Below are positions 33,001 through 48,000 of a DNA stretch of 64,000 bases, piece by piece. Source of the DNA: Candidatus Aminicenantales bacterium. Its GTDB lineage: Bacteria > Acidobacteriota > Aminicenantia > Aminicenantales > UBA4085. The stretch is taken from positions 1 to 64,000 of the forward strand of contig JBEKTZ010000012.1 of NCBI GenBank assembly GCA_049515535.1. Direction: 5' to 3'. The position numbers are program-made. Each line of letters starts with the position of its first letter. Within the stretch, counting starts at the first letter, position 1.

Positions 33001-36000
33001 CCGAAGATTTCGGCTTGGTCAACGCGATCTACATGGTGAATAAGGTCAGTCAGGATTATCTGATCCGTCCCATGGGGATTTTCCAACTGATCGATTACGT
33101 GGGCCTCGACGTCTGCCAATGCATCTTAGGCGTGATGAACGAGCGCCTCCCCGGAGGCCGGCTCCACAGCCCTCTCGTAGACAGGTTGATCTCCCAAGGG
33201 ATTGCCGGCGGTCAATACGCCGATGGATCCCAGAAGGATGGATTCCTGAAATATGAAAAGGGACGGCCCAGCGGCGTATATGATCCTGATCAACGGGCCT
33301 ACGCGCCCTTCTCGGAGATAACGGAACACTGTCATAAAGCGTTGGGCGCCCCGCCGGATCAAGCCAAGCCGTGGAAAAGCGTGATCCAACATCCCGACAA
33401 GACAAATTACCTGCGGGGCTATTTCCAACAACTGAAAGTGATGAACACCCTGGGCGCGGATTTAGCCAAAAGATATGGACGGAAATCCAAGAAAATCGGC
33501 CTTGGGCTCGTGAACGAGAAAGTCGCCGACCGGGAAGAGGACGTCAATACCGTATTGCTGACGGGCTTTTTCCATGCCTACGGCCCGATCAACGATTATT
33601 TTGAGGGAGAGGTCAGACCATGAAAAAAAGCCGGCAAAAAGTCTTTATGACGGCGGGATATGACACCATCTCCATGGGAACGGGCCGGAAGGAATTCCAT
33701 CCCAAAAAGCCCCGGCCGGGCCTTGAGGAATACATCCGGGAAGCGGGCCAGGGAACCTTGAAGCAAATCGGCGGAGGGAAGAACGTCGATGAAGGAGTGA
33801 TCAGCAATTTCATGGCGGCCCGTTTCAATAAGCAGGGCAACCTGGCCGCCCTGATTCCTTCTGTGGATGAAGACTTGAGATGGAAGCCGTGTTGCCGGGT
33901 GGAAGGGGCCTGCGGCTCAGGCGGGCTGGGACTGATTGCCGGGACAAAATCCGTGCTCGCCGAAACGGCCGAGGTCGTCCTGGCGATCGGCGTGGAAGTC
34001 CAGAACACCGTCAAGGCCATTTATGGCGCGGACATCTTAGCCGGCGCCGGCTGGTTCAAGGGCGAACGCAAGAAAGGTCATGCCTATTTCTTCCCGGCGG
34101 CTTTCAGCGTCCGGGCGGGCGCCTATTTCGAAAAATACGGCCGGGAGAAAACGCGACAGGCTTTCGCCCGCTGGTACCGGAACGCCATCGAAAACGCCCG
34201 ACTCTGCGAAACCGCCCAGGAATTCCATAATACCGTGGAAAATCTCGAATCATTGGCCTTGACGGAACCGAATCCCCAAACGTTCGTTGACCACTTGAAT
34301 GTTTTTGACTGCTCCAAAGTTTCCGATGCGGGGTCCGCCATCGCCATCGTCTCCGAAAATGGCTTGAATCGGATTAGAATCCCCAAATCCGAGGCCGTCG
34401 AAGTCGTCGGCTGGGGGCAGGTTGAAGCGGATCTGACGATTCCTCCGGAAGATCCGACCTGGCTCGACACGACGTCCAGAGCCGTGAAAAAAGCTTTGGA
34501 ATGCGCGGAAATTTCTCTCCAGGAACTTGGGACCGTGGAATGCCATGACTGCTTCACGATTTCCGGTCTTTTATCCGTGGAGGCGATCGGGCTGGCCGGG
34601 AAAGGCGAAGGAGCTGATTATATTTTAGCTGGGAATACTTCGCGGCAGGGAACCTTGCCTTTCAACACGTCCGGCGGGCTGATCGGCTGGGGACATCCCA
34701 CCGGCGGCACCGGAGTGCGGCAGGCCGTCACCATCTGGCAGCAGCTGACGGGGAAAGCTGGGAATTGGCAAATTCCGATATCGCCGGACCGCCCCTATGC
34801 GCTTTCCATCAACATGGGCGGAAACGACAAAACAGTCACGGCTATCGTCTATCGACGCGCCGAATGATCTGAAGAGTCCATTTTTCCGAGTCTTTATTCC
34901 CCGATGAGCTCCCGGGCGATCACCAGGCGCTGGATCTCGCTCGTGCCCTCTCCGATTGTGCACAGTTTGGAATCGCGCCAGAACTTCTCGACCGGATAAT
35001 CCTTGCAGTAGCCGTATCCGCCCAAGATCTGGACGGCCTCTTCCGCGACATTAACCGCGACTTCCGAAGCGTAAAGTTTGGCTTGTGAAGAGATCAGAGT
35101 GGTCTTCCGCCCCGCGTCCTTCTCGTCGGCCGCGCATTCGGTGAGCAGCCGGGCGGCGCTGATGTGAGTGGCCATGTCGGCCAGCTTGAAACGGATGCCT
35201 TGAAAAGCCGCGATCGGCTTCCCGAATTGACGGCGCTGCTTGGCATAAGCGACGGCCGCGTCGAGCGCGCCCCGGGCGATTCCCACGGAAAGGGCGGCGA
35301 TTGAAATCCGGCCGCCGTCGAGGACAACCATGGCCTGAATGAACCCGTCGCCTTCGTTCCCCAGGAGAGCGTCCTCTCCGACGCGGCAGTCCTCGAAGAT
35401 CAACGAGGCCGTGTCGGAAATGCGCATGCCGATCTTGTCTTCGTGCTTTCCGACCGTAACCCCGGGGATGTCGAGCGGGACGAGAAACGCGGAGATGCCG
35501 TGATGATCCTTCCCCGGCTGCGTCCGCGCCATCGCCACCGCGACCCCTCCGGCTCCGGCATGGGTGATGAAATTCTTGGTGCCGTTTAAAACCCAGCCGC
35601 CGGAGTCGCGGACGGCCGTGGTCTTGGTCGCGCCGGAGTCGGACCCGGCCTCGGGTTCCGTCAACCCCCACGCGCCGATGACTTCTCCGGACGCCAGCCG
35701 GGGCACCCACCGGCGGCGTATCTCCTCGATCCCGAATAAGAAAACATGGTTCGTGCACAGGGAATTGTGGGCCGCTACAGAGAGGGCGATTCCGCCCTCG
35801 ACGGCCCCCAGCTCTTCCAGGATCGCCACGTAATGCCGGTAGGTCAACCCGGCTCCGCCGAGCTCTTCCGGAATCAGGATCCCCATCAGCCCCAGTTTGC
35901 CGAGACGGCGGAGGACGTCCAGAGGAAAATGGGCCTTCTCGTCCCATTCCCGGACATGGGGGGCGATTTCCGAGCGGGCGAAATCCCGCACCATCTCCCG

Positions 36001-45000: not shown

Positions 45001-48000
45001 GCTTCCCGGAGAAAGTGGATTACATCACCAGCCCCGGATGGCTTGAAGGCGGGAACAGCCGGCTAATGTCCGGCCTTGTCCGAGGCGGGCCGAGCGTCGT
45101 GGTCACCACCTTGGGCGTGATGCGCTTCCGTCCGGATACGAAAGCCATCTATCTGGCCGGTTTCCACCCGGGCGTGACTCCTCAGGCCGTCGCCGAGGCG
45201 ACCGGTTTCAACCTGGATATCAAGGACGCCGTTGAGACAGCGCCGCCGACCCGGAAAGAATTGCGCATCCTCCGTGAGGAAGTGGACCCGGAGAGGATCT
45301 TTTTGAGATAGAGCCGGCCGCTCCCGCCGAATGGAAATGAGGCCGGTGAAGACTAGGCGTCCAGCTTGATGTTTCCTTTGTACATGATTACTCCCCGCGG
45401 CGTTTGGCCCAAGCAAGAACCGATGGGCTTCGTAAACAGAGAGTCGTCATAGATGGCCTTAAGGTACCGATCGCGATACCGGGGATGGGCAATGCTGGCG
45501 ATGGCAAGCGCTTTCTCACCGGCGGTGAGTCCCCGAAGGTCGGCAATACCGTATTCACTCACAATGACCACTCCATCATAGGCGGAGGCCGTTAAACTCA
45601 CGCCGGGAGGATGGACCCTGACGATTTTGGAATGACCTCTATCGGTCAGGCTTCGAAAGGCGATGATGGGGACGCCGTAGGCGGGATTATTCAGGGCGCG
45701 GACAAAATCCGGCTGACCGCCGACGCCGCTGTAATATCGACGAGCATCAATATAATCGGCCCAGACATTGCCGAAGAGATCGACTCCCATGGCCGTATTG
45801 ATGGAGACGAAGGGACTGTTCCTCCGGATGACTTCGGCCGAGTTGGTGACGGTGCAGGGACGCATCTGGATTCCCGCGCGCATATGCACGAATTCATACA
45901 GTTCCGTCGAGCCCATGATGAGGGAGGTTGTGCTGTATCCCATATCTTGCTTTTTCTTTCGATTCGTCACGATGTCGGCCTTCTGCAGATGCATCAGACC
46001 ATCCCCATAAAGCTCCGTCTGGATGCCGAGGTCTTTATAATTCGCCCCTTTGATGGTCCCCACCACGGCGTCCGGGATTTGCCCGATGCCTACCTGCAAA
46101 GTCACTCCATCGCGAATAAAATGTTCCGTGATCAATTCGCCGATTCGACGCTCTTCAGGAGAAAGGTTGTCAAAATCAGGTCCGGGGGTCACGTAGACGC
46201 ATTTCACGTCGTCGTCGTCAATGAGGTAATCAATGGATTGGGGGCCGACGATGCTTTGACCTTGAGTGAAAGGCATGCTGAAATCCAGCTCAGCAATAAC
46301 GCATTTGGCCTGATCGATGGCCGTATGCAGGGCCTCAACGGACAATCCCAGACTGAATTCCTTCGTGATTTCATGGGGACGGACTTTGAAGAGGACAATG
46401 TCCGGCTCATACTCCCGATCTTTGCCGATCAGACTGTCAAGATTGGACAGCGTGCACGGCAAATAAAAAGCCCGTCCCTCGTTGGCAGCTTTGCGCACGT
46501 CGCCCGTGGAAAAAATGGAATAGGTCATAATGCGATCCTGGAGTCCTTTTTCCACGTAAGGCACGGGCCCCTGGAGCAGGAGATGGACCATCCTGATGAA
46601 AGGCAATCTGGGGCTTCCGGCCTTGATGGCGGCCGTCAGGGATTCCAGCGAAGCCGTCGGCGTCGCGGCATTGGATCCGACATAACAGGTGATCATGTCT
46701 TTATGCCTGAATTCCTTGGCGATGACATCCGCCAACTGACTGAGTTGGATGACCGGGGGTTGATAAGCCATCCTCATCCTCCTGAGATTTTAATATGGGT
46801 TGAATTCATCGAATAACAAATAGAAAATACAGAATTTCCTATCAACATGCAAGCCCATGACCGAGATCGGTTCTTTTCCATAGGGCGACGGTCTTCATCG
46901 GCAGCCTCGACCGGGCACCGAAGATGTGCTAAAATCCCGTGAGAGAAAACGGAGAAAAAAACAGTTGATGACCTTCGGCCGATTCAAGATTTCCGTTTAT
47001 AACCACGGCTTCTTCCGACTGGACGGGGGGGCGATGTTCGGGACGGTTCCCAAAAACATCTGGTCGCGCCGGATTCCCCCGGATGATGAAAACCGCATCC
47101 GGCTCGCCACCCGGTCGCTGCTCATTGATACCGGCGAGAGACTATTCATGGCCGATGTCGGCAACGGCGATAAATGGCCGGATAAACTCCGCCGGATATA
47201 CGCCTTCCAAAATTTCTCCGATCGGGAAACCGGTTTCGATTCCGAGGCCGTCACGGATATTGTTTTGACCCACCTTCATTTTGATCATGCGGGCGGGATT
47301 TCTCGATATCAACCGGGAAGCCTGACGGACCTGGAGCTCTGTTATCCTCGAGCCCGGATTTATCTCCAAACCGATAATTATGAAAACGCCAAAAATCCCA
47401 ACCCGCGCGAGCGCGCCAGTTATTTGGAGGAGAATGTTTTGGTCCTAGAACGGGCCAAACTCGTATTGACGCACGGCTCCCAGGAGATTGAGCCCGGTAT
47501 TTGGGTGCATCAAGTCAACGGTCATACCCGCGGCCATCAATGGCTTGAAGTTAAAAACGGCGCCGAGTCCATCGTCTTTCCCGCCGATCTTGTCCCGACC
47601 TCTCATCATCTCCCGCTCCCGTTTTCGATGGGTTACGATATCTCGGCCGGGACGCTGCTCGAGGAGAAAGAGGATTTTTTGAGCCGGGCGGTCGCCCATC
47701 ATTGGATCGTTGTCTTCGAACACGATCCGGACATCCCCGCGGCCCGCGTGAAAATGGATGAGAAGGGCCAATACGTCCTGCAGGAAGTCGTTGCGCTTTG
47801 AGGGCTACCCGGCTTCCGTTTCATTCCAAAGATTGCTTTGACCTTGACGAGAGGAGAATCGTCTCCGATTGAAAACAAGTCAAGGGACGAGCCTTCGGCT
47901 CGCCACTCGCCCGTGGCTTATATCCACGGGCGAGTACGGCGGAAGTGGACCCCCGGGTAAAGCCCGGGGCCCCGGCCGCCGTCGAACGGCGGTCGATCCG

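Follow-up and report, generated by a model that had tools for sequence, protein, structure and literature searches.

Among the closest described relatives of the locus reported here is the thiolase/HMG-CoA synthase (HMGS)/DUF35 complex of Methanothermococcus thermolithotrophicus (PDB 6ESQ/6ET9; organism name taken from the papers), which is the best solved relative of all three subunits. The defining features of such a complex are an E-C-H-N tetrad in HMGS and a catalytic Cys, HDxF and GHx in the thiolase (PMC12960953). A bacterial trio of HMGS-like protein, thiolase and DUF35 protein also forms the Friedel-Crafts acyltransferases PhlABC and MucABC, which have lost the E-C-H-N tetrad and HDxF (PMC12960953, PMC6392133). 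Isovaleryl-CoA degradation is represented by the liu cluster of Pseudomonas and the isovalerate cluster of Desulfococcus multivorans, with a dehydrogenase, methylcrotonyl-CoA carboxylase (MCC) and a hydratase (PMC9636800, PMC5109826). In the alternative isovaleryl-CoA biosynthesis (AIB) of Myxococcus xanthus, HMGS and LiuC connect acetyl-CoA with isovaleryl-CoA, and neither HMG-CoA lyase nor HMG-CoA reductase takes part. This route uses AibAB, a dedicated decarboxylase without the catalytic Glu, and AibC, an MDR reductase.

The window, i.e., the whole 64,000-nucleotide stretch analysed from a Candidatus Aminicenantales genome (G000), contains an operon that combines features of these systems. 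Its eight genes occupy one strand from 43251 to 34894 in the order HMGS, thiolase, DUF35, MCC beta, hydratase, MCC alpha (two genes) and acyl-CoA dehydrogenase (Table 1). Domain and family profile matches bear out this gene set and order, which the genome-wide survey's note had given for 34894..46771. The intergenic gaps are 9, 12, ~28, 58 and 65 nt, followed by an 11-nt overlap of the biotin carrier gene with each of its neighbours. The CoA-transferases that the note had placed beside the operon are indeed there, and lie outside it, as one divergent pair and one gene beyond.

Table 1. Features of the operon and its surroundings (positions in the window)
Feature	Position	Strand	Basis or remark
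Archaeal-type HMG-CoA synthase (HMGS), 348 aa	42205..43251	-	TIGR00748, 6ESQ
Archaeal/SCP2-type thiolase, 384 aa	41041..42195	-	6ESQ_A E 2.4e-114; PhlC 6e-32
DUF35 scaffold (Zn ribbon + OB fold), 130 aa	40636..41028	-	PF01796, PF12172
MCC beta (carboxyltransferase), 535 aa, start ATG at 40607	39000..40607	-	MCC beta chains
Enoyl-CoA hydratase, methylglutaconyl/carboxygeranoyl-CoA (LiuC-like) class, 263 aa	38150..38941	-	NCBIfam
Biotin carboxylase (MCC alpha N-terminal part), 508 aa	36558..38084	-	profile matches
Biotin carrier (MCC alpha C-terminal part), 180 aa	36026..36568	-	PF00364
Acyl-CoA dehydrogenase, 380 aa	34894..36036	-	1WS9
Glutaconate CoA-transferase-like pair (GctA 43585-44538, GctB 44541-45311)	43585..45311	+	divergent from operon
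Acetyl-CoA hydrolase/transferase family CoA-transferase	45353..46777	-	PF13336, PF02550; TIGR03948 under cut-off
Head-on operon	25054..34867	+	domain/family profile matches

As in the M. thermolithotrophicus complex, the genes of the trio are adjacent and the residues are kept: the HMGS tetrad is E80-C112-H234-N266 (retained in 97/97 homologues), and the thiolase has C83, H282 of HDCF and H332 of GHP (87/87). The intact tetrad and HDxF set the trio apart from PhlABC and MucABC. HMGS passes the archaeal-family cut-offs (TIGR00748, 528 bits against 353; PRK04262, 537 against 244), and the E-values previously given for its likeness to 6ESQ (5e-135) and to PhlA (2.3e-65) were reproduced exactly. 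The thiolase scores 562 bits against NF053570, under the cut-off of 600. The DUF35 protein, whose gene adjoins the HMGS-thiolase pair, matches 6ESQ_E at E 8.5e-31 and PhlB at 1.3e-16. A physical complex of the three proteins, with a shared CoA site and channelling, is predicted from the likeness to 6ESQ. Unlike its M. thermolithotrophicus counterpart, the trio resides in a bacterium that has MEP genes and lacks the reductase, is co-operonic with MCC and a hydratase, and is proposed to operate in reverse.

The remaining genes appear, by sequence class, to supply MCC beta, MCC alpha and the methylglutaconyl-CoA hydratase of the liu pathway. MCC beta matches structure chains named MCC beta at E 1e-216 to 3e-218, geranyl-CoA carboxylase at 1.5e-137 and typical PCC at 1e-82 or weaker; it should be noted that its two top rows (E 7e-222 and 2e-219) are labelled propionyl-CoA carboxylase beta and AccD1. 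The best NCBIfam matches of the hydratase, PRK07468 and PRK05674, are both under cut-off, and gene context suggests a substrate of the methylglutaconyl-CoA type. The acyl-CoA dehydrogenase is closest to short-chain types (1WS9, E 1e-121), with named isovaleryl-CoA dehydrogenases at 7.5e-82 or weaker; isovaleryl-CoA may be its substrate. The operon shares a dehydrogenase, MCC and a hydratase with the liu clusters, and its block order MCC beta-hydratase-biotin carboxylase-carrier is that of lyase-using Acidobacteriota. It departs from the liu clusters in lacking LiuE/HmgL and an acetoacetate CoA-transferase, in having the trio ahead of MCC beta, and in its split MCC alpha. It also differs from the M. 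xanthus system, whose MvaS is bacterial-type (E 5e-19 to the HMGS described here), and a biotin carboxylase and a flavin dehydrogenase stand here in place of the decarboxylase and reductase.

The genome under study lacks HMG-CoA reductase (PF00368), as the note had stated; queries for a reductase-kinase fusion, IDI2 and the decarboxylase likewise gave no match in it, while nine GHMP matches are present. MEP genes, including dxr and ispG, are present and cover isoprenoid supply. No HMG-CoA lyase was found in this genome, the sole HMGL-like protein being, again as claimed, a homocitrate-synthase-type gene of a lysine cluster (47 bits against the lyase cut-off of 246). AtoDA and a classical thiolase are also missing from the genome; IlvE, VOR-like genes, Pta and Ack are present. 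A link between isovaleryl-CoA and acetyl-CoA through the trio, separate from mevalonate synthesis, is well supported. Since it stands in a leucine operon instead of HMG-CoA lyase, the trio probably runs backwards. We therefore lean toward a catabolic role, in which the operon degrades leucine or isovalerate and the trio splits HMG-CoA into three acetyl-CoA, one ATP above the lyase route; the substrates, complex formation, direction and ATP gain of this route are what we infer.

In this proposal, leucine would be converted to isovaleryl-CoA by IlvE and the VOR-like oxidoreductase, isovaleryl-CoA to methylcrotonyl-CoA by the dehydrogenase with ETF, methylcrotonyl-CoA to methylglutaconyl-CoA by MCC, and the latter to HMG-CoA by the hydratase. 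The reversed trio would then turn HMG-CoA and 2 CoA into 3 acetyl-CoA and H2O; thiolysis of channelled acetoacetyl-CoA would drive the uphill HMGS step, and acetyl-CoA would yield ATP through Pta/Ack. Because all three C2 units would remain thioesters, one ATP more would be obtained than with lyase plus CoA-transferase. HMGS is treated as a one-way enzyme in the existing view; its reaction finishes with hydrolysis of an enzyme thioester, and the reverse reaction may be too slow. Formation of HMG-CoA from 3 acetyl-CoA has been put at +4.7 kJ/mol (bioRxiv 2020.11.20.391870). The trio reaction amounts to about -5 kJ/mol in the cleavage direction, reversal of the HMGS step alone to about +21 kJ/mol (by subtraction), and overall cleavage to between -7 and +12 kJ/mol, depending on which of six assumed concentration sets is used. 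The proposed activity, HMG-CoA + 2 CoA to 3 acetyl-CoA, is thermodynamically allowed.

The head-on operon encodes ETF beta and alpha (CarE-like), MeaB, and the large and small subunits of an isobutyryl-CoA-type mutase, together with an acyl-CoA dehydrogenase, a crotonase, a 3-hydroxyacyl-CoA dehydrogenase and a thiolase. The mutase carries MRQFAG and EYIAQKE, which we take to be isobutyryl-CoA mutase determinants. ETF alpha is closest to CarE (E 2e-121), placing the ETF in a bifurcating, typically reductive class; this class, the lack of Rnf in the genome and a dehydrogenase without recognisable isovaleryl-CoA type count against catabolism. The CarE-like ETF, two FabH genes and the missing ilvC and ilvD would suit an operon working in the opposite sense, from acetyl-CoA through HMG-CoA, methylglutaconyl-CoA and methylcrotonyl-CoA (MCC making ATP) to isovaleryl-CoA by bifurcating reduction. 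Synthesis is, moreover, the sole direction demonstrated for the thiolase/HMGS/DUF35 complex (PMC12960953), and in M. xanthus HMGS and LiuC serve a liu route run in reverse (PMC9636800). Nevertheless, we consider this direction unlikely, as we do its conceivable purposes (primers for iso-fatty acids, a VOR-based synthesis of leucine, or an electron sink). AibAB/AibC-like genes are absent from the operon and occur separately in the phylum, where a divergent trio is found in AibR/AibAB/AibC-like operons without MCC; thus, the biosynthetic version is arranged differently. MCC itself is known as a carboxylase. The note's statement that BCAA synthesis genes are missing holds for ilvI/H/C/D, none of which was found, but not for leuB/C/D-like genes, which are present at C1:362881-367238. 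His and Trp genes are likewise missing from this genome, and ilvD is about equally rare in non-carriers (10/81) and carriers (6/70); a specific replacement of BCAA synthesis by the operon is therefore not supported.

The Gct-like pair (E 5.7e-63 to 1POI_B, 1e-14 to the 5MZW group) occupies a corresponding position in G182, G138 and G170. It is not AibAB, since GctB retains the catalytic Glu, and a role in glutamate fermentation was rejected, as the genome lacks 2-hydroxyglutaryl-CoA dehydratase (HgdAB). Among the 30 scanned proteins of the region there is no MDR (AibC-like) one, and the region examined holds no PKS/NRPS. A promoter/terminator scan gave nothing usable (2 and 12 sites, where 1.8 and 10.3 would be expected), and a plasmid search returned distant matches only (best ~32%). 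In four sediment metatranscriptome runs from a single study, contigs of flat depth cover the region, mostly at 90-95% identity, and one of them spans the head-on junction; DNA carry-over is possible, so neither expression nor co-transcription follows.

The distribution of these genes also favours the catabolic reading; genes for leucine breakdown accompanied by the trio, with no HMG-CoA lyase, recur in numerous uncultured anaerobic bacteria. Among 151 genomes of the class, MCC beta is found in 60 and HMGS in 59 of these, within 4.5 kb of MCC beta in 52/59; the one exception, G171, has its MCC beta at a contig edge. Canonical HMG-CoA reductase occurs in 0/151 and ispG in 143/151. An ordinary liu or mevalonate pathway whose lyase or reductase was lost to assembly incompleteness is very improbable and largely refuted: G000 is 94% complete and most carriers are draft MAGs, but a control gene is missed in 8/151 genomes, whereas canonical lyase and reductase are missing from 60/60 MCC carriers, including single-contig G138, G178 and G182. 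Lyase-family matches appear in only 4/60 MCC carriers, all from a separate CoA-transferase-linked clade. An earlier doubt over HMGL-like proteins in carriers is largely settled, as 30/30 such loci examined adjoin a family III CoA-transferase, with 31-37% identity to canonical lyase. Intact HMGS without MCC beta occurs in 11 genomes, each of which carries a GcdA/MCC-like carboxyltransferase that is non-orthologous; it is located near the trio in 6/10 regions examined, and the HMGS of these genomes forms a separate branch in a quick, midpoint-rooted tree without archaeal rows.

Neighbour counts at the 80 best loci agree with the note's to within one (thiolase 77, DUF35 68, hydratase 44, biotin carboxylase 37); the carrier is found at 31. 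The carboxyltransferase count (45) does so too, but only 42 are MCC-type, the other 3 being a different 580-aa carboxyltransferase. The acyl-CoA dehydrogenase of the operon is rare there, as reported (best match in 5/80). No lyase gene lies in 100 regions around HMGS or its operon; in relatives without the trio, 15/34 neighbourhoods of the MCC beta-hydratase-biotin carboxylase-carrier block include a lyase at a distance of up to 10 kb. Gene order and presence/absence lend good support to the proposal that the complex takes the lyase's place, yet the link is not universal: among 42 MCC-linked carriers from other phyla, 6 possess a full reductase, and 8/10 tested MCC genomes without trio and neighbouring lyase lack canonical lyase elsewhere too. 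Together with G133, which has the alternative carboxylase operon without trio or lyase, these eight genomes indicate that other outlets exist. A literature search found no description of a lyase-free leucine operon with the HMGS trio.

The reductase-bearing carriers fit a further scheme, which we find doubtful, in which both halves of the operon run forward and meet at HMG-CoA or methylglutaconyl-CoA, consumed by an unrecognised enzyme; tentative candidates are a divergent reductase, a new lyase or the neighbouring Gct-like transferase releasing a C6 diacid. Three mevalonate clusters examined in such carriers have no HMGS inside, and in G043 the trio lies within a mevalonate cluster, joined to reductase, hydratase and carboxylase. 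Six genomes of the class, each an MCC carrier, encode proteins that weakly resemble the reductase (41-55 bits); this, AtuA in several lyase-free MCC operons and the Gct-like pair without a glutamate-pathway partner point the same way. Against this stand the lack of a reductase-like match, AtuA and a CitE-like lyase in G000 (its single PF03328 match is an HpaI/GarL-type sugar-acid aldolase), the lack of a further gene family conserved next to the operon across phyla, and the MEP genes, which serve isoprenoids.

Lyase-free catabolism is, in our opinion, the somewhat likelier case; HMGS would then be a catabolic enzyme in a thioester-conserving pathway that spans at least 10 phylum-level groups, employs at least two (possibly three) carboxylases and makes anaerobic oxidation of isovalerate ATP-positive at the substrate level. 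By our bookkeeping, a fermenter on the lyase route would gain +1 ATP from isovaleryl-CoA, no better than what isovalerate excretion yields, and 0 when starting from free isovalerate; with the reversed complex, if true, the gains would be +2 and +1, respectively, before the cost of electron disposal. This would explain how energy-limited anaerobes gain from full leucine oxidation. Screens of genomes in which the lyase serves as a required marker of isovalerate degradation (PMC7382037) would miss these organisms. Of the unexplained bacterial HMGS/ACAT/DUF35 loci, 1,001 of which have been counted (PMC12960953), a part would gain a function.

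The operon's HMG-CoA synthase (HMGS) scores 528 bits against an archaeal family cut-off of 353, and 6ESQ is the best solved relative of HMGS, thiolase and DUF35 protein alike, with PhlA, PhlC and PhlB far behind, which upholds the description of this trio as archaeal-type rather than Phl-type in the genome-wide survey's note. Both the E-C-H-N tetrad and the HDxF motif, which according to PMC12960953 tell HMG-CoA-forming complexes from Friedel-Crafts acylases, are complete in the window's HMGS and thiolase. The catalytic motifs are invariant in 97 of 97 HMGS and 87 of 87 thiolase homologues, a set picked by similarity and hence biased toward conservation. 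Zn-binding cysteines are missing from the alignment in about 10–12 of 83 DUF35 homologues, either because the Zn site has been lost or because the sequences are misaligned.

Intergenic gaps in the eight-gene operon do not exceed 65 nt, and two overlaps of 11 nt occur. The carboxyltransferase belongs to the methylcrotonyl-CoA carboxylase (MCC) class (E 1e-216 vs 1e-137 for geranyl-CoA carboxylase), with two top rows labelled otherwise; the hydratase is LiuC-like by class, with a score under the cut-off, and the acyl-CoA dehydrogenase sequence gives no assignment to isovaleryl-CoA. GctB of the adjoining CoA-transferase matches 1POI (E 6e-63) and retains a Glu aligned to the catalytic Glu; the 5MZW group we take to be AibB. 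ETF alpha is nearest to CarE and other clostridial-type ETFs, which bifurcate.

Features of the window and of related loci (G000, genome bearing the window at C12:1-64000; L numbers, loci fetched from other genomes)
Feature	Location	Strand	Remarks
Eight-gene operon: HMGS, thiolase, DUF35, carboxyltransferase, hydratase, biotin carboxylase (BC), biotin carrier, acyl-CoA dehydrogenase	43251 -> 34894	minus	
Gct-like CoA-transferase pair	upstream of operon		divergent from HMGS
ETF/mutase/beta-oxidation operon	25054-34867		end 26 nt from acyl-CoA dehydrogenase, last gene of eight-gene operon
Two eukaryotic-type citrate synthases	23384-24703; G000 C3:32636-33925		76% identical; window copy above TIGR01793 cut-off; one precedes ETF operon
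Two divergent glutamate dehydrogenases, then two PEP-synthase/PPDK_N-domain proteins	48755-56639		latter 586 and 1071 aa
Short ORFs	22487-23259		apparent remnants of two transposases (judged by eye)
LeuB-like and aconitase-like genes, lyase-less	G000 C1:362881-371155		beside two succinyl-CoA/citryl-CoA synthetase-like subunit genes (by eye)
LeuB-like, HMGL-family lyase, family III CoA-transferase, aconitase-like	L092-L097, L135-L158		conserved, MCC-independent
Proteins of ~450 aa weakly similar to HMG-CoA reductase	L110, L111, L159-L164		41-55 bits; in class confined to MCC carriers
Zixibacteria mevalonate clusters without HMGS	L105:1408-3714, L116, L117		HMG-CoA reductase fused to GHMP kinase
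AtuA (PF07287)	L251-L253, L258, L265, L198, L066, L167		in or beside MCC-type operons without canonical lyase
580-aa carboxyltransferase in place of MCC beta	L167, L168, L170, L172, L175, L217, L225, L063		e.g. L170:14042-15784
Third MCC-like beta subunit (45-46%) with hydratase, family f31	L278-L281, L283, L284		f31 trio stands alone
Divergent archaeal-type trio operons	L214, L215, L222, L260, L262, L263, L221		TetR, Gct-like subunits without catalytic Glu, MDR dehydrogenase

According to PMC9636800 and PMC5109826, HMG-CoA is the end point of the dehydrogenase-MCC-hydratase block. The assembly of G000 (3.45 Mb, 32 contigs, 94% complete) contains no PF00368 match, and its single PF00682 match, homocitrate-synthase-like and amid lysine genes, is also the sole match (46 bits) of a canonical lyase query; the survey's claim that lyase and reductase are both missing from G000 therefore stands. 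Searches of G000 likewise returned no CitE-like lyase, AtuA, AtoDA, classical thiolase, Rnf or HgdAB, and no orthologue for the ilvI/H/C/D, his or trp queries; dxr, ispG, IlvE, Pta, Ack and two FabH were found, together with a four-subunit oxidoreductase whose beta subunit lies narrowly above the VOR cut-off (410 vs 405) and whose alpha subunit falls under it. HMGS is the sole enzyme found in G000 able to act further on HMG-CoA.

Among 151 genomes of the class, each at least 85% complete, HMGS occupies 71 rows (one a frameshifted operon) and MCC beta 60; 59 genomes have both, at most 4.5 kb apart in 52. A canonical reductase was found in none of the 151, and weak reductase-like genes occur in six genomes plus one fragment, all in carriers; ispG, present in 143, measures the miss rate. 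Just four of the 24 lyase-family genes are in MCC carriers. A family III CoA-transferase adjoins all 24, as well as six from other phyla, mostly with LeuB-like and sometimes also aconitase-like genes. At 254–288 bits, vs about 427 for two canonical lyases, and 31–37% identity to one of these, the proteins appear from sequence to be lyases for another substrate, with activity on HMG-CoA possible too; the cluster possibly serves cleavage of an alkylmalyl-CoA. A close orthologue of the mutase is present in 14 class genomes, 12 of them intact carriers, and ilvD in 6 of 70 carriers vs 10 of 81 others. Since related genomes are not independent, these counts carry no P value.

In the 301-genome phylum sample, with the unpublished G222 taken in as one MCC-positive row, 100 genomes have MCC beta, 65 HMGS and 28 both; the window's gene order recurs in all eight further double carriers fetched. 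In 34 of the 72 MCC-only neighbourhoods, fetched with long contigs preferred, a lyase gene lies within 10 kb in 15, mostly ending the same block (13 at 47–76% identity to the canonical lyase, two at 38%). Ten of the remaining 19 genomes, searched whole, gave a canonical lyase elsewhere in two, the other clade only in four and none in four. MCC-like enzymes can therefore occur with neither outlet, which limits the argument from absence, and several such operons hold AtuA, a candidate third outlet or partner. A hidden consumer of HMG-CoA is conceivable, but we consider it improbable.

Examination of 20 of 37 HMGS-only loci revealed a 580-aa carboxylase operon in two, a Gct-like set in three, an MDR gene only in one, and HMGS standing alone in 14. 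Five stand-alone carriers were followed, and none was found to have a lyase: in four of them a LiuC-like hydratase adjoins a remote MCC-like subunit (45–46%), and the fifth has the 580-aa carboxyltransferase. For family f31 the tally is no lyase in any of the four genomes tested. The 580-aa carboxyltransferase, as distant from glutaconyl-CoA decarboxylase as from MCC beta, is present in 11 of 11 HMGS carriers without MCC beta. Of ten HMGS regions examined, four (five counting L167) have it in a trio-BC-carboxyltransferase-carrier operon, accompanied by dehydrogenase and hydratase except in a truncated one; in L166 it lies about 6 kb downstream. Two genomes with this protein lack HMGS; in G083 it sits at the end of a contig, and G133 is a genuine exception. 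The protein may represent a second family of methylcrotonyl-CoA carboxylases, as yet undescribed.

The 80 best HMGS loci among the matches listed, many on short contigs, have thiolase nearby in 77, DUF35 in 68, MCC-type beta in 42 and hydratase in 44, and derive from Aminicenantes, Zixibacteria, Ignavibacteria, Eisenbacteria, Coatesbacteria, Elusimicrobia, Cloacimonadota, Planctomycetota, Myxococcota and others; many named closest homologues of the G000 HMGS are from Aminicenantes MAGs, which makes Aminicenantia the probable class of G000. Fifty of these genomes (42 MCC-linked, eight others) were searched whole for lyase and reductase. Five of the 42 have a lyase-family gene above cut-off, six a full reductase and two more a weak reductase-like gene. 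HMGS is missing from the mevalonate cluster in all three reductase carriers examined, and G043 joins decarboxylase, reductase-kinase, trio, hydratase and carboxylase in a single cluster. In a minority, then, the complex is provided with a conventional outlet in the forward direction.

Reversal of the trio (HMG-CoA + 2 CoA -> 3 acetyl-CoA) in leucine/isovalerate catabolism is, in our opinion, somewhat probable. In preprint 10.1101/2020.11.20.391870 the thiolase step is +26 kJ/mol and 3 acetyl-CoA -> HMG-CoA +4.7 kJ/mol, so that the reverse would be about -5 kJ/mol. Under assumed concentrations the reverse step spans -7 to +12 kJ/mol, the acetyl-CoA/CoA ratio being decisive. In crystals of S. 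aureus HMGS the reaction reportedly ran backwards (Theisen 2004). The hard step for HMGS in reverse would be re-formation of the enzyme thioester from free carboxylate (reaction mechanism in PMC11522927). The entire chain is near equilibrium, and both directions could be workable; operation in the reductive direction seems unlikely to us. Catabolism is favoured by the lyase-like pathway position of the complex, by the adjoining mutase/beta-oxidation operon together with general auxotrophy, by the expected ATP gain, and by the fact that an anabolic operon of aib type exists separately. The latter comprises a divergent trio (50–54%) with Gct-like subunits at six loci, five of which have Cys at or adjacent to the catalytic Glu position in one subunit; examples were confirmed to carry a TetR gene on the upstream side and, downstream, a gene for an MDR dehydrogenase. 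The myxobacterial aib operon is arranged in this way, and MCC is kept elsewhere in three of the genomes. These operons probably encode isovaleryl-CoA synthesis by a route of the myxobacterial type, with the channelling complex as its basis.

The individual enzymes are all known already; their combination lies outside the mevalonate pathway, liu, AIB and PhlABC, and, unlike liu, the window operon has no lyase. The combination is undescribed in the full-text literature found; subscription journals, Voegeli 2018 and bioRxiv supplements lie outside this scope and might mention such clusters. PMC12960953 puts the number of bacterial trio loci at 1,030, of which 1,001 lack a secondary-metabolism context, and "carboxylase" and "leucine" never occur in its main text, supplements being outside this scope. 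PMC7382037 uses the lyase as a marker, PMC12979851 describes an archaeon with leucine routed into mevalonate, and 10.1101/2024.07.05.601840 reports a different use of thiolase/DUF35. The arrangement is real and conserved, known pathways do not explain it, and it is open to direct test.
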